Assembly: GCF_003334315.1 (NCBI RefSeq)
Contig: NZ_QOWR01000018.1
Reading direction: 5' to 3' (one strand)
DNA length: 64,000 bases
Origin: Escherichia coli
Lineage (GTDB): Bacteria; Pseudomonadota; Gammaproteobacteria; Enterobacterales; Enterobacteriaceae
Under the pieces are notes generated by a model. It made no database searches, had not been told where the DNA came from, and saw nothing but the letters and a program-made list of their open reading frames with translations. Positions 3,840 to 51,561 of this stretch are shown here, one piece after another. The position numbers and the translations under genes were made by a program. Position 1 is the first letter of the stretch. Each line of letters begins with the position of its first letter.

Positions 3840-4558
3840 CGCAGATGACGACCGCCATCAAGTGGGAAACTGCGTCCGGTGACAAAGCAACTGGTAAGTA
3901 AGTAATCGACCAGGTCGATCACTTCTTTCTCGCCAGGCGCGGTTTTCATCAGTGATTTATTCAGCGCCTGTTGTCGATATTCGGCATCATCATGTTCATT
4001 AAACAGGATCAGCGATGGCGCAATAGAATTCACTTTCACTTCCGGTGCCAGCTTGCGGGCAAACGAGCGGGTCATATTATCCAGTGCCGCTTTGCTTGCA
4101 GCATACGCAATATGTTTGTCGCTACCGCGCTCCACCACATAATCGGTAAAGTGAATGATATCGCTGGCGGCGTGTCCGTGCCCACGCAGTAATCTTTCCA
4201 GCGCATGGTTGAGCAGGTATGGGGTATTAACGTGGATCTGCATCATGCAAGCCAGTACGTCGGCCAGTGGCGCACCCGGTTTTTCCGCCATCCACGCACT
4301 GGCGTTATGCAAAATAGCACGCAGACCATGGGTGCTTTTTAGTACTTCATCGGCAAACGCCATCACACCGTCGTTGGTCGAAAAATCAGCCTGAATACAC
4401 TGCGCACCTGCATTAATCAGTCCATCAATGGCTGGATAGTGTGTCCGATAGCTGACAATCACCGGTTGCTTTTGATTAATGAAATGCCATGCGAGGGCGA
4501 GGCCGATGCGACGACCTCCGCCAGTAATTAATATTGGCAAGGGCTGGGTTTTACCCAT
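3836..4558 (-). CDS. folM: dihydromonapterin/dihydrofolate reductase FolM (short-chain dehydrogenase)
   Basis: 240 aa, N-terminal TGGGRRIG Rossmann motif; synteny. Confidence 0.9.
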   Translation of the reverse strand: MGKTQPLPILITGGGRRIGLALAWHFINQKQPVIVSYRTHYPAIDGLINAGAQCIQADFSTNDGVMAFADEVLKSTHGLRAILHNASAWMAEKPGAPLADVLACMMQIHVNTPYLLNHALERLLRGHGHAASDIIHFTDYVVERGSDKHIAYAASKAALDNMTRSFARKLAPEVKVNSIAPSLILFNEHDDAEYRQQALNKSLMKTAPGEKEVIDLVDYLLTSCFVTGRSFPLDGGRHLR

Positions 4559-34464: not shown

Positions 34465-36936
34465 TTAAGAATCAGCCTGACTCGGGATCAGTTTTTGCCA
34501 GATAACTGAAACGTATTTTGCCTGGTAACGGGCGTCATCAAGTGCATTATGGCGCTCACCTTCGAATGGAATAGCCGTTCTGGCATCGAAGTCTATGGCT
34601 TTCCCCAGCTCAACGATTGTGCGTACATCGCGATCGTTGTAGTAACGCCACGGGCAGGGGATCCCCTGCCGTTCGTATGAACGGCGCAAAATCGTGTTGT
34701 CGAAGTTGGCTCCATTTCCCCAAACCTGAACAAAAAATTCACCGGAGTTTTCGTCGATAAATTCCCGCAATTGTAACAGTGCATCATCTAACGGGATTTC
34801 ATCGGTCATAATGGCAGATTGCGCTTCGCGTGATTGCTTAAGCCACCATTTAATGGTGTTCCGATCAATGACTCCGCCAGCAGTTTCCAGATCGATAGTC
34901 TTACTAAATTCCGGTCCCATATCTCCGGTTTGCGGATCGAAAAATATTGCACCTATTGAGATGATCGGGGCATCAGGATTTTTTCCCATGGTTTCAAGGT
35001 CGATCATTAGATGGTCACACGTCCTGCTGGTGGATGTGATTTCGTGATGACCGTTCACCTTAATTGAGTGATCTGCCGTCTCGCCAGTTTCATTATCGCT
35101 ATTGTGATGCTGATTGCCGCCAGTGTTCTCCTTGTGTGGATGTTCAGCGCCTTCCATTTCCTCCGGATCATCTTCCTGAACTTCAACCTGATATTCTTCA
35201 TCGAATGTTTCTTGATATGTTGCGTCGCCCATCACCGCGCCACAATCAGGGCAGTTGCCGCCGCCGGTCTGACCGCAGGCGGTGCAGACTTTTTCCACTT
35301 CCTGTTGCGCCACTGGTTCAGGCTGTTTCGTTTCTGGCTCGTTTTGTAACGCATTTGTGCTGTTTTGTTCCGCTTTTTGGTAGTTCCGTTCCGATTTATG
35401 CTGGTTCTGGTTCACAGAATCGCGGGTCTGGATCCCCTTAACCCATTTCGGATCATTCGGGTCACTAATCCCTTCAACAAATTCACCACGTGATGCAGCA
35501 AGCAACTTATCGGCGTCAGGCTGGCTGATATTGGCTGCCTGCATAATTTTGTTTACTTCGTCAGCGGTAACTTTTATCGGCTCTGGTTGTTCTGAATCTT
35601 CAGCGGTATCTACATTTTGCGGTAAGCCCGTGTATGTGCCATTTTTTCGGGCAAAATATTCTTCTTTTGTGATTTCAGTGGCGCCAGCAGCCAGTGCCTT
35701 ATCCAGACCAGAAAGTTTGTTTGCGCGACCGTATTTTTCTCCGTCCTTATCTGCGAAGAGGAAATAGAACGGCCCCTCACGCTCTACAGATGGTTCAGCT
35801 TCCGGCGCGGTTTCATTTTTTGGGATATCAGATACCTCAGTTTCCACTGCATCAGTTTGTGTTTCTGATGACTGGAGAACATCAACAGTGCCCAGGTCTG
35901 TTTCTTCATTCTCAAACACGCCCTTTGTCGTCAGGTATTCGCAGATATATTTGTTCAGTGCTATGGGATCTTTGTGAATGTCGATCGGACGCTCACGGAC
36001 AAGGCCAAAAATAGTCTGGCGGTCGTAGCGAAGGGCATCAGGCTGTTTGCGCATTGATGCCGAGATACGCTTCCAGTCTTCGCGGTCGTTGTCGATAACT
36101 TCTTTTTTTGCCCAGCGATGGATGCTGCCGTCAATGTTTCCGGCATCCACATCACCAGGCCAGAGAGCGTAGGCCAGTTCGTCATCCAGTGTTTTCCATG
36201 TCTGCTTGTATTCGCGATGAATGGCAGCAATGACCGGGCTGATTTTTCCTGTTGAATTTTCAGTGTACTGTTGATTGGCTCTGGCGCGGGCGAGATCAAC
36301 AACAGACGTGTATTTTCCGGTTTCCTTGCGTTCACCTTCGCGACGTTTTTTCCAGATGCGCATCTCTGCCTGAATTTCGGGCCATTTAGCACCAGGAATA
36401 CATTTATGCTTAACCCACCCAATGGCGTGCAACTTAAGCTCCGGATACATGGCGTTAACTTCTGGCATTTTCATCAACGCTTCAACGATATGTCCGTCGA
36501 ATGTTGCCATGTCTTCCTGCAACAATTCCTGTGCGCTAATAACCATATCAACGGTGATGTTTTCACATGTGTCGAACTTAACCATGACAGCGTTCTGTAC
36601 TTCAGGGGCCAGCTTGTCAAAAGTGACGTTCATCGGATCGGATTCAGTCTCAACCGGGACAAAAGAAGCAGACTCCTCATCCCAGCGGTTTTCCTGCATA
36701 TATTCAGCATCCCATGAATCGAGGGCAGGGCGGGGTATGCCAGGTTTATCCTCGCAGACAATAAATTTATAAGCGCAGTCCTGAGCAGCCGGATAATGTT
36801 CCAGGAACTGCCAGTGAAATTTTGCTCGAGCACGGCGTTCGTCGCCAGCTTCAATGGCTGTGGCTACAGCCACAGCGCCTTCTTCCCTTGTTGCCAGTTC
36901 GTCAGGAATAGCGGCGCAAATAAAGACTTTACTCAT
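34465..36936 (-). CDS. RecE-family phage exonuclease with a C-terminal DnaQ-like (DEDDh) 3'-5' exonuclease domain
   Basis: C-terminus has Exo I (MIDLETMG), Exo II (GANFDNTIL) and Exo III (HNALDDARYQ) motifs; central DKLLAASRGEFVEGISDPNDPKWVKGIQTRD segment recalled from RecE. Confidence 0.7.
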   Translation of the reverse strand: MSKVFICAAIPDELATREEGAVAVATAIEAGDERRARAKFHWQFLEHYPAAQDCAYKFIVCEDKPGIPRPALDSWDAEYMQENRWDEESASFVPVETESDPMNVTFDKLAPEVQNAVMVKFDTCENITVDMVISAQELLQEDMATFDGHIVEALMKMPEVNAMYPELKLHAIGWVKHKCIPGAKWPEIQAEMRIWKKRREGERKETGKYTSVVDLARARANQQYTENSTGKISPVIAAIHREYKQTWKTLDDELAYALWPGDVDAGNIDGSIHRWAKKEVIDNDREDWKRISASMRKQPDALRYDRQTIFGLVRERPIDIHKDPIALNKYICEYLTTKGVFENEETDLGTVDVLQSSETQTDAVETEVSDIPKNETAPEAEPSVEREGPFYFLFADKDGEKYGRANKLSGLDKALAAGATEITKEEYFARKNGTYTGLPQNVDTAEDSEQPEPIKVTADEVNKIMQAANISQPDADKLLAASRGEFVEGISDPNDPKWVKGIQTRDSVNQNQHKSERNYQKAEQNSTNALQNEPETKQPEPVAQQEVEKVCTACGQTGGGNCPDCGAVMGDATYQETFDEEYQVEVQEDDPEEMEGAEHPHKENTGGNQHHNSDNETGETADHSIKVNGHHEITSTSRTCDHLMIDLETMGKNPDAPIISIGAIFFDPQTGDMGPEFSKTIDLETAGGVIDRNTIKWWLKQSREAQSAIMTDEIPLDDALLQLREFIDENSGEFFVQVWGNGANFDNTILRRSYERQGIPCPWRYYNDRDVRTIVELGKAIDFDARTAIPFEGERHNALDDARYQAKYVSVIWQKLIPSQADS

Positions 36937-37029
36937 TTTGTTTTAACCTCATGACAGATTTAAGGATGAACAAATCCCTGCCATTGCTGGCATATAAGAA
37001 TGAAACCGGATATTTATTACGGAACTGTT

Positions 37030-37221
37030 TTAAAGACCTGCCGGGATTTCGATATTATCCTGGTGAATAACTTTATCGACCGGGTAACAGTTACCGGGAA
37101 TTTTCTGTTCGGTTGCTGCAGTCATACACTCCTGCATTGTCCTGTGAACACTGACTGCAATATCAACTGGCTCTCCGGAAACAAGAAAAACTGTCAGAAC
37201 AAGCGCAAATGCTGAATTCAT
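37030..37221 (-). CDS. ydfD: YdfD-like small lysis-associated protein (63 aa)
   Basis: MNSAFALVLTVFLVSGEPVDIAVS...; 4-nt overlap with dicB stop. Confidence 0.7.
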   Translation of the reverse strand: MNSAFALVLTVFLVSGEPVDIAVSVHRTMQECMTAATEQKIPGNCYPVDKVIHQDNIEIPAGL

Positions 37222-37406
37222 TGTGCACATCCTTTTGGCATCAGACGTAAACGAGCCAGCATTGAAACAATGCATATTTTATTTAATAGCTCCCGTTCTT
37301 GTTTTCTCTTGTTAATGGCATCTTCAGTAAATACAGGGTTACTGATAGTGACACCAATTTCAAAACAACCTTCAGACGTATTAACGTTTGGTAATAACGT
37401 TTTCAT
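37218..37406 (-). CDS. dicB: cell division inhibitor DicB (62 aa)
   Basis: MKTLLPNVNTSEGCFEIGVTISNPVFTEDAINKRKQERELLNKICIVSMLARLRLMPKGCAQ matches DicB as recalled. Confidence 0.85.
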   Translation of the reverse strand: MKTLLPNVNTSEGCFEIGVTISNPVFTEDAINKRKQERELLNKICIVSMLARLRLMPKGCAQ

Positions 37407-37580
37407 TATCGCGTCCTCAACAATGAATTTTGTGATGCAGTGCCTGGTGCCTCCAGGTGACGTTAACCAGTTAACAATTAACGCCGGATACAGAGAATCC
37501 ACCCATAACACTGTTTTTGGTTTTAACTGTTCCGCGTGCGCTTAGCCGCATTCACCGCATCACAAAATTCACTTTAAAAA

Positions 37581-37633
37581 CGGCGGCAGAGCAGTCACGG
37601 AGTAAAACTGATACCGCCAAACGTCACCAGAAA
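37581..37633 (-). ncRNA. dicF: DicF small regulatory RNA (ftsZ-targeting) with its 3' T-run
   Basis: Reverse complement reads TTTCTGGTGACGTTTGGCGGTATCAGTTTTACTCCGTGACTGCTCTGCCGCCG followed by TTTTT, matching DicF as recalled; located upstream of dicB. Confidence 0.85.
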
Positions 37634-37908
37634 ATTGATAACAGAGGGCGTTGCAGCGGGGTTGTCACTTAAGCGTATGGTCAACCTGACAACTCGGTGT
37701 CCTCAACGGGGAAGGAATAACCCCGCCATACTTACCGCCGCGCCATTTCGCGGGTTGCCACAACCGGAAGCGCACGGTCGAATTAAATTTAACGACACCG
37801 TACAGTGAGACGAACTTCGCCGTGCGCTTTCGTGTTGTGTGCCTGCTTTTAACCACGTCAGGCGAGGTGGTATCCTTCTTATTCCGAATAACCAAGAAGG
37901 AAATCTAT

Positions 37909-38109
37909 ATGACTAAAGAAGAATTTGTCTCTTATATTTTTGATAAAACGGTTGAAATGTATGCCGCTACTTACGGGTCCTGTAATCCTCTGAATAAACC
38001 AGAGGGGAAAGATGATTTCGACAAAATTTACCGCTTCTTGGAGGACCGCTATATCAAAAGGTTAGAGGACGCAGGGATCAAATCCCCAGTGAAGTCACCA
38101 TTGTCCTGA
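37909..38109 (+). CDS. hypothetical 66 aa protein, antisense to the dicB operon
   Basis: ATG at 37909 preceded by AAGGAA RBS; MTKEEFVSYIFDKTVEMYAATYGSCNPLNKPEGKDDFDKIYRFLEDRYIKRLEDAGIKSPVKSPLS. Confidence 0.4.
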   Translation: MTKEEFVSYIFDKTVEMYAATYGSCNPLNKPEGKDDFDKIYRFLEDRYIKRLEDAGIKSPVKSPLS

Positions 38110-38455
38110 GAACTTGCAGGACGTCATGATCGTAACTTCCATCCAAACCGCGACGGCAAATTGCTTCTCGTATTACCGGAAGCAGTTCGCTGGAAATCTC
38201 GGTGCATATTTCACCTGCTAATACGCCTGGCTCAAGTGAGAATATTGGTGAACTTACGGTCTTGGTCTCGACAGTTTCAGAGTCAGTGCCAACATTATAA
38301 AGCTCAACGAAAGCGGTCTTGATTTTCCGGGCCAGATCTTTTGCTGGCTCGCTTGCAATATCTTTCCCGATTTCTCGCAGCACAGAATGCAATGTATGAG
38401 CTGCTGTTTTCTGTACATCAGACGGTAAATCTTTAAATTCCATCGTCAGCCTCAT
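38078..38455 (-). CDS. hypothetical 125 aa protein in the dicB operon (position of K-12 ydfB/ydfC)
   Basis: ORF between ydfA-like gene and DicF on the operon strand. Confidence 0.5.
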   Translation of the reverse strand: MRLTMEFKDLPSDVQKTAAHTLHSVLREIGKDIASEPAKDLARKIKTAFVELYNVGTDSETVETKTVSSPIFSLEPGVLAGEICTEISSELLPVIREAICRRGLDGSYDHDVLQVLRTMVTSLGI

Positions 38456-38607
38456 CAGTCAGTGTTTCTGGCTAACCAGCAACGCGCGCCAGATTCGGTT
38501 TTAAACGTTTTGCTTTTGGTATATGTCATCGCGGTGAACGTACCGTCCTGGTTGGGGAACACGCCACATACCAGAGATTCGCTGTTGCCAAGATCGATAG
38601 TATCCAT
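38455..38607 (-). CDS. YdfA-like small protein (50 aa)
   Basis: First small ORF downstream of the Ob-like operator; MDTIDLGNSESLVCGVFPNQDGTFTAMTYTKSKTFKTESGARCWLARNTD. Confidence 0.5.
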   Translation of the reverse strand: MDTIDLGNSESLVCGVFPNQDGTFTAMTYTKSKTFKTESGARCWLARNTD

Positions 38608-38721
38608 GCTGACCTCATTTCCCCTTAACGCCGGGGTAGCGGAACTGTTTGCTGAGAACACCGTGCGGTGTGTTGATGGAGGTAATTTAGTTTTCTCATT
38701 ATTTTTCGTCAAGGTTTTTTG

Positions 38722-38735
38722 ATGAGAAAACTCAA
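38722..38735. promoter_or_regulatory. operator-like palindrome (candidate DicA site Ob) upstream of the ydfA-dicB operon
   Basis: TGAGAAAACTCAAGTATTG, near-identical copy of the motif at 39258-39276. Confidence 0.55.
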
Positions 38736-38799
38736 GTATTGGCGCAAGATAAAGCCAATACATTGAAATGTAAGGCTTTAAAATTTTGTGAAGGGATGA

Positions 38800-39207
38800 T
38801 TATTGATGCTTGTTGCGTTTGCGAGCCTCTAATAGCTCGGTGAACAGGCGATTAAAATTCTCAACGCGGGCGCGGAGTTCGCTGAGTTGTGCTTGTTGCT
38901 CTGATTTAGGAAGTGCGCGATACAAACGCAGCATCTCTAACTCATCTTCCGATAAGTCTAAGGCACTATCGAGTGAAACAGGGGGAGCTGGTGTTTTGTC
39001 CTCGTCGCCAAACAGTATCCAGGTTGGTGAACATTGCAATACCTCGGCGAGGCGATGCAAATTTTGCCCACGCGGGGCTGTATGGTCACTTTCCCATAAT
39101 GAAATTGATGAGCCAGATACGCCAGCAGCTTTGCTTAAACCGTTTTGACTTAAGCCTACCTGCTTACGTCTTTCTCTAATGCGTTGACCTAAAGTTTTCT
39201 CGTTCAT
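38800..39207 (-). CDS. dicA: DicA repressor (XRE-family HTH, 135 aa from MNEKTLGQRIRERR)
   Basis: HTH motif and conserved LQCSPTWILFGDEDK segment recalled from DicA. Confidence 0.85.
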   Translation of the reverse strand: MNEKTLGQRIRERRKQVGLSQNGLSKAAGVSGSSISLWESDHTAPRGQNLHRLAEVLQCSPTWILFGDEDKTPAPPVSLDSALDLSEDELEMLRLYRALPKSEQQAQLSELRARVENFNRLFTELLEARKRNKHQ

Positions 39208-39257
39208 ATTTAGATATCTTAATAACCCTTGACTTGAGATTCCTTGAGTGATTAGCA

Positions 39258-39271
39258 TTGAGAAAACTCAA
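39258..39271. promoter_or_regulatory. operator-like palindrome (candidate DicA site Oc) in the dicA-dicC divergent region
   Basis: TTGAGAAAACTCAA inverted repeat between divergent dicA and dicC starts. Confidence 0.55.
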
Positions 39272-39284
39272 TATTGGAGGTGCG

Positions 39285-39512
39285 ATGTTTAAATCAGACG
39301 TAATTAATTTTTACGGTACGAAAGCCAAAGTAGCGAAAGCTGCTGGCGTTGACCCATCTGCTGTTTCTCAATGGCAAGAGCTGGTTCCTGAAGGTCGCGC
39401 GATGCGTCTACAGGAGGCATCTGGCGGGGAGCTTCTGTATGATCCCAAGGTTTATGACGAATATCGTAAGACGAAGCGGGCGGGGCGGTTGAACAATGAA
39501 AATCACTCCTGA
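39285..39512 (+). CDS. dicC: DicC (Cro-like regulator), ATG with GGAGGT RBS
   Basis: C-terminal LVPEGRAMRLQEASGGELLYDPKVYDEYRKTKRAGRLNNENHS as recalled for DicC; divergent from dicA. Confidence 0.75.
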   Translation: MFKSDVINFYGTKAKVAKAAGVDPSAVSQWQELVPEGRAMRLQEASGGELLYDPKVYDEYRKTKRAGRLNNENHS

Positions 39513-40017
39513 ACAGGCTCGTGAGGCTCTGGATGCCTGGATATGTCGACCAGGAATGACACAGGAGCAGGCGACGATATTAATCACTGAAGCATTCTGG
39601 GCTTTGAAAGAGCGCCCGAACATCGATGTTCAGCGTGTCACAGATGAAGGTGGCGCGGTTGATCAGCGAGCGCTTGGCGTTAATCGAGTGAAGATATTCG
39701 AACGCTGGAAGGCTATCGACACCAGGGATAAGCGTGAAAAGTTCACGGCGCTAGTGCCTGCAATTATGGAGGCTATCCGGATTAATGATTTCAGGTTGTA
39801 TCGTGAAATTAGTGACGGAAAAAGCATCACGTACATGATCGCCGGGTTAAACAAAGAATATGGCGATGTGGTGGAGTCCGGACTGCTTTTTGCTGATCCT
39901 GCCGTAGTGGATCGTGAAACTGACGAACTTATAGAAAAAGCAATTGCTTTCAAACTTGCGTATCGACAGCAATACCAACAAAAAGCTGGATGGAATTATG
40001 AGCCTTCTTTTTGCTGA
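39496..40017 (+). CDS. YdaT-like early-region protein (173 aa)
   Basis: Position immediately after the cro-like gene; weak resemblance to Rac YdaT. Confidence 0.45.
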   Translation: MKITPEQAREALDAWICRPGMTQEQATILITEAFWALKERPNIDVQRVTDEGGAVDQRALGVNRVKIFERWKAIDTRDKREKFTALVPAIMEAIRINDFRLYREISDGKSITYMIAGLNKEYGDVVESGLLFADPAVVDRETDELIEKAIAFKLAYRQQYQQKAGWNYEPSFC

Positions 40018-42947: not shown

Positions 42948-43204
42948 ATACAGCGAACTCCATTGGTTTAGTTGGATATTTACTGTGCTGGACAAAACGG
43001 TTTGCGGGGAAATCTTAGTTAAGTAGAATGACTGCGGGTACTTGAGGCTATCTGCCTCGGGCACGAACACCAACGGCAGGTAGAGAAAAGCCCCAGTTAA
43101 CATTACGCGTCCTGCAAGACGCTTAACATTAATCTGAGGCCAATTTCATGCTAGACACATGTAGGTTAGCCTCTTACGTGCCGAAAGGCAAGGAGAAGCA
43201 GGCT

Positions 43205-43360
43205 ATGAAGCAGCAAAAGGCGATGTTAATCGCCCTGATCGTCATCTGTTTAACCGTCATAGTGACGGCACTGGTAACGAGGAAAGACCTCTGCGAGGTA
43301 CGAATCCGAACCGGCCAGACGGAGGTCGCTGTCTTCACAGCTTACGAACCTGAGGAGTAA
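43205..43360 (+). CDS. hokD: Hok-family type I toxin (HokD/RelF-like, 51 aa)
   Basis: MKQQKAMLIALIVICLTVIVTALVTRKDLCEVRIRTGQTEVAVFTAYEPEE; upstream in-frame leader ORF from 43148 (mok-like). Confidence 0.85.
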   Translation: MKQQKAMLIALIVICLTVIVTALVTRKDLCEVRIRTGQTEVAVFTAYEPEE

Positions 43361-50676: not shown

Positions 50677-51039
50677 ATTAATATTAAATCGGATTATTTT
50701 TAGCGCTGAATGTGAAATTTAAATAAAAAGGACTCTTCCATGAGTCAAAATCCTTGAAATCTTAAGGGTAAGATAAAAGGTCATTAGACAGAATGACACG
50801 TTTTATTAATAAATAAAGCTATTGTTTCATTCGTGTGTTTTTCTTTACAAAAGTAATCCTTGCTATGGTTGGTTAATCATGCGTTAATGGTGTTCTGGTT
50901 TGTTACAAAATTATCTGAAGCAGTCATTGTTATAATTTTATTATTTGTACCTCTTGAGATTTCCTTGTTGGTTTTTCTCTCTGATATTTTTTTTCGGACC
51001 ATTCTGCCCAAGGGCTAACTTCTTCAAAAGGTAATAATG

Positions 51040-51252
51040 ATGTCTAACAAAATGACTGGTTTAGTGAAATGGTTTAACCCTGAAAAAGGTTTTGGTTTCA
51101 TCACGCCGAAAGATGGTAGCAAAGATGTGTTTGTCCATTTCTCAGCTATTCAGAGCAACGATTTCAAAACGTTAACTGAGAATCAGGAAGTCGAATTTGG
51201 TATTGAGAACGGACCTAAAGGCCCCGCGGCTGTTCATGTTGTGGCACTTTGA
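51040..51252 (+). CDS. cold shock protein (CspA family; CspB/CspI-like)
   Basis: [38 protein letters not shown]... RNP1/RNP2 motifs. Confidence 0.9.
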
Positions 51253-51561
51253 GGTAGAAAATATTACAAACCATATTCACTTTAGATGCCCGTGTTGCCA
51301 TGGTTCTCAGTATAGAACATCATCTTTTGATGTTTCTGACAGGAATCCTTTCGGGGCAAAATGTATCTTTTGTAAATCAATGATGATTACATTTGATAAT
51401 ATTTCACAATACTTAAATGTTAGCCGTCTGTCGTTAGATTTAAGAAAGTGAAAATGAAGGCTCCTTCGGGAGCTTTTTTGCTTAGTGTCTAGTCGATGGA
51501 TACTCACATATTACGGTAACATTATGAAAAAAATAATAGTTTTTTTAACTCTGAACCAGCA

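Follow-up and report, generated by a model that had tools for sequence, protein, structure and literature searches.

Within the 64,000 nucleotides of Escherichia coli DNA analysed here (contig NZ_QOWR01000018.1 of assembly GCF_003334315.1; hereafter the window), the 66-codon reading frame at 37909..38109 (+), which we call ORF66, is, as judged by comparison with its homologues, a genuine protein-coding gene under purifying selection. The account that we favour on balance is that ORF66 is a small-protein accessory gene of the moron type, lying antisense in the early-left operon of a lambdoid prophage, in the slot of sieB, and that it would be expressed in the lysogen phase and switched in a sas-like way. 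Our best guess at its function, made by analogy, is a lysogen-phase role, be it exclusion, host modulation or control of its partner, and not the control of a small RNA. The gene is already known in the sense that it has been annotated (RefSeq WP_000159335.1, hypothetical protein), but it is uncharacterised, and a literature search found no mention of WP_000159335. What is new here is the evidence for selection, the independence from DicF, the placement in the sieB slot and the tail-to-tail partnership with a mobile C-terminal domain. Taken with the partner domain, selection on the protein and the sieB slot make of what was possibly antisense noise near DicF a candidate factor in lysogeny or exclusion.

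ORF66 and the selection on its product

The region 37000-39600 belongs to a Qin/mEp460-like lambdoid prophage, of which it forms the immunity and early-left part. Read outwards from an HTH repressor (38800..39207, -), the order is a DUF1391/ydfA-like gene (38455..38607, -), the partner gene described below, ORF66 on the opposite strand, the DicF small RNA (37581..37632, -; Rfam RF00039, 72.5 bits, E 6e-15), which is a neighbour lying outside the cassette formed by ORF66 and its partner, and dicB (37218..37406, -), followed by ydfD (37030..37221, -) and the gene of an 823-aa exonuclease (34465..36936, -); a cro-like gene (39285..39512, +) lies on the far side of the repressor. A preliminary description of this DNA had placed a 66-codon ORF, starting at ATG 37909 behind an AAGGAA ribosome-binding site, inside 37822..38109 (+), and both the coordinates and the site proved correct. 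The frame runs from ATG 37909 to TGA 38107-38109 and encodes a 66-aa protein (MTKEEFVSYIFDKTVE...PVKSPLS), the Shine-Dalgarno AAGGAA occupies 37897..37902 (+), six bases ahead of the ATG, and the maximal ORF around it (37822..38109, +) has a GTG start and would yield 95 aa. The ATG is favoured over the GTG because homologues such as that of locus L013 are unable to extend upstream, and because the N-terminus MT(K/N)E(E/Q)FV is invariant. The Shine-Dalgarno sequence GAAGGAAAT is kept in the E. coli-type, Salmonella, Enterobacter and L005/6 homologues, with the variants GGGAGG in Cedecea and TGGAGGA in L011; its distance from the start is the same across homologues, whose products are 65-66 aa long (73 aa in the most distant). 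The GC content of ORF66 is 40.8%, against 48.7% for the window.

The product of ORF66 matches phrog_34441 over residues 1-66 of 66 (E 1.5e-50), and the identical protein is annotated in strain CP53, whose sequence is the same as that of the window, in E. coli B REL606 (ECB_RS08150) and in phage mEp460_ev081 (VUF53565.1), the last of which is a functional temperate phage with dicB, dicF, dicAC and rem (PMC10448788); derivatives of BL21 carry ORF66 as well. With 398 of the 5,426 complete E. coli genomes positive, the gene is found in about 7% of them, including the workhorse B strains REL606 and the BL21 derivatives, and also in a functional gut phage. All but two of the E. coli copies (396 of 398) are at least 99% identical, so that they say little on selection when taken alone. 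Protein searches, on the other hand, recovered relatives at 88-94% identity in Salmonella Braenderup, Enterobacter asburiae and unassigned contigs and, further out, at 73% in Cedecea, at 54-57% in two unassigned contigs and at 42% in the 73-aa relative. A profile search against 1.84 billion representative proteins gave only 10 ORF66 matches below 1e-10, which makes this a small family; where the host genus is recorded, its members are found only in enterobacterial prophages (Escherichia, Shigella, Salmonella, Enterobacter and Cedecea). Nine independent contexts were compared, namely the window, L013, L014, L016 (Enterobacter), L017/18 (a Salmonella Rac-like prophage, adjoining kilR/ydaE), L005, L006, L003/4 (Cedecea) and L011, and a further 18 IMG/VR contigs were surveyed beside them.

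Between these lineages, the ORF66 frame shows dN/dS values of 0.11-0.28 (Nei-Gojobori), which are approximate, given synonymous sites near saturation and alignments of 5-9 sequences, while the other two sense frames give values mostly above 1 (range 0.25-4.7, some pairs undefined). The differences are biased to third codon positions, with counts such as 12/14/28 and 20/13/34 over the three positions, and the same bias is seen in the first 17 codons, where no minus-strand gene overlaps the frame; dN/dS there is 0.04-0.11, with values again mostly above 1 for the other two sense frames. Selection at the level of the protein contradicts both the reading of ORF66 as a spurious ORF and its reading as a non-coding antisense RNA. 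Since ATG-to-stop ORFs of 66 codons or more number 154 in the window, length alone is no evidence for a gene; ORF66 stands above chance because it is conserved, in nine contexts and with the low dN/dS just given. The earlier suggestion of a real convergent gene is thus borne out by purifying selection, by the kept start and Shine-Dalgarno sequence and by the existing RefSeq, PHROG and phage annotation, and the frame is retained among related prophages in all nine independent contexts together with its start, its length and its Shine-Dalgarno sequence.

The protein itself is hydrophilic (GRAVY -0.68) and mildly acidic (pI 5.3), and is predicted to be a soluble two-helix hairpin: the AlphaFold2 model, built from a 7-row alignment, has helices at residues 3-22 and 31-54 and a disordered tail (pLDDT 76.5). 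Its invariant residues group into two motifs, MT.E.FV.Y.FDKTV and FD..Y.FL. Comparison of ORF66 with Pfam gave only noise (E 0.07 or worse), NCBIfam and PADLOC gave no match, and the best of the PDB sequence profiles was COQ9, at E 0.07. A Foldseek search with the model found nothing with E below 1 in the PDB or among the viral models of BFVD; a fold as generic as a two-helix hairpin does not lend itself to such matching.

The tail-to-tail partner gene

The gene that ORF66 meets at its 3' end (phrog_33007) occupies 38078..38443 (-) in RefSeq, which gives it 121 aa beginning MEFKDLP; a start at ATG 38455 would make it 125 aa, the length in the preliminary description. The overlap of about 30 nt claimed there holds, at a measured 32 nt. 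Searches with the partner against Pfam, NCBIfam and PADLOC gave no match. In every context examined, the ORF66 gene lies antisense in an early operon, adjoins the repressor/cro pair and overlaps an early-operon gene tail-to-tail, and the overlapped gene carries at its end, in 27 of the 28 loci where the family member is full-length, a homologous domain of some 40 residues, with the consensus E.AGE.LP.I.EAI...G..G.Y......V...M..SLG. This C-terminal domain, which co-occurs with ORF66, corresponds in the window to 38084..38203 (-; TEISSELLPVIREAICRRGLDGSYDHDVLQVLRTMVTSLG). Its homology is supported by comparisons of the window with L005 (BLASTP E 5e-7) and of Cedecea with L005 (E 5e-11), and the Cedecea domain also matches positions 71-121 of phrog_33007 (E 1.1e-15). 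The domain occurs behind three kinds of N-terminus or by itself: in the window it follows an MEFK(D/E)LP head that bears unrelated tails in other proteins, in L005/6 the head is different, and in Cedecea it forms a stand-alone ORF missed by the gene callers. Outside the overlap, pN is 0.18-0.50 against saturated pS, and the partner domain is therefore selected as a protein too. One search needs a remark: a word-indexed search with a 58-aa fragment of the partner returned one partial match, which is a limitation of the index, and the full-length query succeeded.

Such a constant pairing could mean that ORF66 and the partner domain form a two-protein module, an inhibitor/target, toxin-antitoxin-like or abortive-infection pair, rather than that ORF66 is a lysogen-phase moron; the tail-to-tail overlap would then set mutually exclusive or ratio-controlled expression. 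We consider this rather unlikely, even though the 27 of 28 co-occurrences are achieved by way of at least three N-terminal heads and a stand-alone ORF, both members are under purifying selection outside the overlap, and in L011 a 63-aa gene occupies the same tail-to-tail position. That gene, which by eye looked like a plausible homologue of the partner domain, is unsupported as such (hhalign E 0.28) and is counted as a positional analogue only. An AlphaFold model in which a 30-residue linker fuses ORF66 to the partner domain did not give a confident complex (pLDDT 47, pTM 0.28); with 5 paired rows, this outcome is uninformative and not a negative. The toxin, antitoxin and defence models of PADLOC, Pfam and NCBIfam matched neither ORF66 nor its partner. 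Moreover, an overlap of 32-56 nt by itself hinders separation by recombination, and the linkage could in part reflect physical overlap. The two genes are small and tightly linked, yet they converge, whereas the genes of typical type II systems are co-directional.

We are more doubtful still about a proposal in which ORF66 and its partner make up an undescribed convergent cassette, placed in the sieB slot of lambdoid prophages, whose members are mutually antagonistic, acting as a new exclusion, abortive-infection or induction-checkpoint module. ORF66 would here be expressed in the lysogen and the partner domain from the early operon, and the switch between them would be set by sense/antisense pairing, by sequestration of the Shine-Dalgarno sequence and by the adjacent conserved RNase III stem described below. 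If true, this would be a two-gene switch or exclusion module of a genuinely new kind.

Several individual loci deserve mention beside the general pattern. In Cedecea, the stand-alone partner ORF (L003, 3568-3897, -) has no stop after ...SLG and runs on to 109 aa, antisense across all of ORF66. Among the database copies of ORF66 or its partner, P0021, P0015 and P0031 are cut short or have foreign sequence fused to them, P0021 with a transposase-like N-terminal extension, and in L039 and L040 only the first 15 codons of ORF66 are left; the slot appears to be prone to insertions and rearrangement. A homology of ORF66 with its own partner was also considered and was rejected on comparison.

The sieB slot and the probable expression of ORF66

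The position of ORF66 is best appreciated by comparison with sieB. In the Rac prophage of K-12, the order is racR, ydaG, ydaF (DUF1391), sieB on the opposite strand, the kilS small RNA and kilR, with an overlap of 4 nt between sieB and ydaF; the sieB gene of lambda (34482-35036, +) lies directly against the 3' end of N. The order in the window is repressor, ydfA (DUF1391), partner, opposite-strand ORF66, DicF and dicB, and the Salmonella locus L017 has the cassette flanked by the repressor on one side and kilR/ydaE on the other. A SieB-like layout, that is, a gene antisense in a PL-type operon, convergent on an early gene and near the immunity region, was found in nine of the nine contexts. 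Judged by this gene order, ORF66 occupies the genomic position of sieB without belonging to the SieB family. As with sieB of lambda, P22 and Rac, the early-operon RNA is necessarily antisense to ORF66, just as sas is to sieB (PMC7067206, PMC12197685). Unlike SieB (162-184 aa), however, the product of ORF66 is a 66-aa hydrophilic protein, predicted to be a helical hairpin, with no sequence similarity to it, and whereas SieB has no known partner, ORF66 has a conserved partner domain; exclusion is only a candidate function for ORF66. Homology with SieB was tried and rejected, the lambda and Rac proteins giving hhalign probabilities below 1% (E 0.49 and 0.14).

Antisense orientation to lytic genes is characteristic of accessory (moron) loci (PMC7067206). 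Like such loci, for example STMMW_20121 of ST64B (PMC7067206), ORF66 is antisense to lytic genes, patchy in its distribution and lower in GC, and it needs an independent promoter; unlike them, it has no visible terminator, and we infer its transcription in the lysogen. In the window, no intrinsic terminator was seen on the plus strand after 38109, either in the terminator scan or as a strong terminal hairpin in the fold. Another likeness is to the oop/cII arrangement of lambda, in which a convergent element also lies over the 3' end of an early gene; in Cedecea, the cassette even sits beside a cII-like gene, on the opposite strand. The oop RNA is a 77-nt non-coding RNA, and ORF66, in contrast, is protein-coding and under purifying selection. 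Accessory genes antisense in the PL operon have been known since sieB, so that ORF66 is no surprise in kind.

The genes to the left of ORF66 are all on the minus strand for more than 3 kb, and ORF66 must therefore have a promoter of its own. The candidate is an extended -10 element, TGGTATCCT (37868..37876, +), with a possible -35 hexamer TTTAAC at 37848-37853, both inferred. An extended -10 of the form TGnTATCCT (TGtTATTCT in L011) ends 31-33 nt before the ATG in eight of the nine contexts, and in eight of nine, the otherwise unalignable L011 among them, no other sigma-70-like candidate in the 160 nt upstream ranks higher by a rough and approximate home-made sigma-70 matrix. It is weak, with 7-8 of 12 consensus positions plus the TG, and a separate consensus scan did not flag it. 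The same hexamer is also part of an inverted repeat, TCCTTCTT / AAGAAGGA (37873..37901, +), with perfect 8-nt arms at 37873-37880 and 37894-37901, which pairs the -10-like TATCCT with the Shine-Dalgarno sequence of ORF66. This repeat is kept in homologues with some compensatory changes, and the same hairpin appears as a perfect 10-bp stem before an unrelated 82-aa cargo ORF in L009. For such a hairpin to form in the mRNA, transcription would have to start further upstream, where no promoter is visible; the double use of the -10-like hexamer as a hairpin arm thus argues against the promoter reading.

If ORF66 is the lysogen-phase accessory gene that we favour, it would be transcribed from the weak extended -10, its mRNA would have a leader of about 25 nt that includes a good Shine-Dalgarno sequence, and this transcription would occur mainly while the repressor silences the early operon. 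Upon derepression, convergent early transcription would produce RNA fully complementary to the ORF66 mRNA, and polymerase collision together with duplex RNA would shift expression away from ORF66 and towards the partner domain. By analogy, such a switch would follow the logic of sieB and sas in P22, where sas RNA illustrates that an opposing transcript can switch the translation of a gene of this kind (PMC7067206, PMC12197685). In K-12, the early polycistronic transcript has been documented from dicBp through dicF (PMC10448788). An early transcript of this kind must contain the full complement of ORF66, so that collision or duplex formation should silence ORF66 while the partner is made.

Other genes are found in the same slot. 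The ORFs of O157:H7 and of E. coli 503025 have the same position and strand, just past the junction ...TATCCTT that ends the segment upstream of DicF, but, unlike ORF66, they are each paired with a different minus-strand gene, and they are not homologues of ORF66. The former (L002, 2972-3181, +; O157:H7 493/89) is a 69-aa basic antisense ORF (WP_001133035.1, phrog_4274) that abuts a 212-aa gene sharing only the MEFKDLP head with the partner in the window; its homology with ORF66 was rejected at an hhalign E of 0.25. The latter (L009, 2912-3160, +) is an unannotated 82-aa hydrophobic antisense ORF placed right after the ...GGTGGTATCCTT junction; it has no match in PHROG and may be another exchangeable antisense cargo gene. 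The junction of dicBF-type operons is thus a hot spot that exchanges different antisense cargo genes, which matters when the regulation of dicBF is interpreted outside K-12. A further parallel is offered by the Rac locus of K-12 (L019, 3906-4660), which mirrors the window with its DUF1391 gene, antisense sieB, kilS small RNA and division inhibitor kilR, and suggests a common architecture with a small RNA and a division inhibitor downstream of the antisense slot.

DicF and the operon RNA

The preliminary description had raised antisense modulation of DicF and dicB as a possible purpose of this ORF, which it correctly located upstream of the DicF precursor. RNase III processing of that precursor has been described for K-12 (PMC10448788), and the calculated 5' end of the 190-nt form falls at about 37770, so that the ATG of ORF66 is some 140 nt upstream of the precursor in the sense of the operon. 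The operon-sense RNA can form a long stem at 37759..37838 (-) of 21 pairs, five of them with compensatory double changes, along with U-G wobbles in the minus orientation, which lies directly downstream (operon sense) of the ORF66 cassette. Since the calculated precursor end lies in the 3' arm of this stem, the stem is probably the RNase III site that yields the 190-nt DicF precursor. The same stem adjoins ORF66 in the DicF-less loci L014, L016 and L017.

ORF66 points away from dicF, and it has no overlap with the 53-nt DicF or with the 190-nt precursor of that RNA (37581-37770). In addition, DicF is absent from L003-6, L011, L013, L014, L016 and L017, and from about 16 of the 28 ORF66 loci surveyed, and in Cedecea the cassette is found between cro and a cII-like (Phage_CP76) gene. 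The flank on the DicF side (37500-37877) is common to 4,590 of the 5,426 E. coli genomes; similarity breaks at 37877, just 5' of the Shine-Dalgarno sequence of ORF66, and only 386-398 genomes run on into ORF66 and its partner. Transcription of ORF66 runs away from dicF, and the gene occurs in loci that lack DicF, so that a role specific to DicF is unsupported; nor is antisense modulation supported as the purpose of ORF66, given the wrong direction, the missing overlap, the DicF-less loci and the selection on amino acids. A head-on collision with early-operon transcription is possible as a by-product.

For the same reasons we find it very unlikely that the element acts as an RNA, with an antisense transcript modulating the dicBF operon, the processing of DicF or dicB, and with the ORF being incidental. 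It is true that ORF66 runs head-on to the operon, some 110 nt upstream (operon sense) of the conserved stem where RNase III probably cuts, and comparable antisense control is found with sieB/sas in P22 and with oop in lambda (PMC7067206, PMC12197685); against this stand the strong constraint on the ORF66 protein, the absence of overlap with DicF or its precursor, the presence of the family in many DicF-less prophages and the location of the Cedecea gene between cro and the cII-like gene. That ORF66 should be spurious, its conservation stemming from constraint that the partner gene or the structure of the operon RNA imposes on the opposite strand, or from recent spread of one prophage, is hardly credible: the near-identity of the E. 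coli copies, the overlap of the last 10 or so codons with the partner gene and the minus-strand ORF that spans the whole region in Cedecea would fit, but homologues at 42-73% identity keep the full-length ORF, the third-position bias extends to the first 17 codons outside any minus-strand gene, and the Cedecea extension is not conserved elsewhere.

Some minor RNA features were noted in the course of the analysis. An STnc100-like match at 37374-37583 (-), which extends over the spacer between dicF and dicB into the first part of dicB, scored 34.5 bits and is below the gathering score of 47. Further along the prophage, Rfam identified a sok antitoxin RNA at 43036-43210 (+; 99.9 bits) and a cspA-type thermoregulator at 50882-51298 (+; 109.8 bits), both typical cargo of Qin-like prophages. 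Finally, L005 and L006, the two most diverged of the full-length contexts, carry a tRNA gene in the early-left operon (4257-4329, -, and 3968-4040, -, respectively), about 0.7 kb downstream of the cassette in the sense of the operon.
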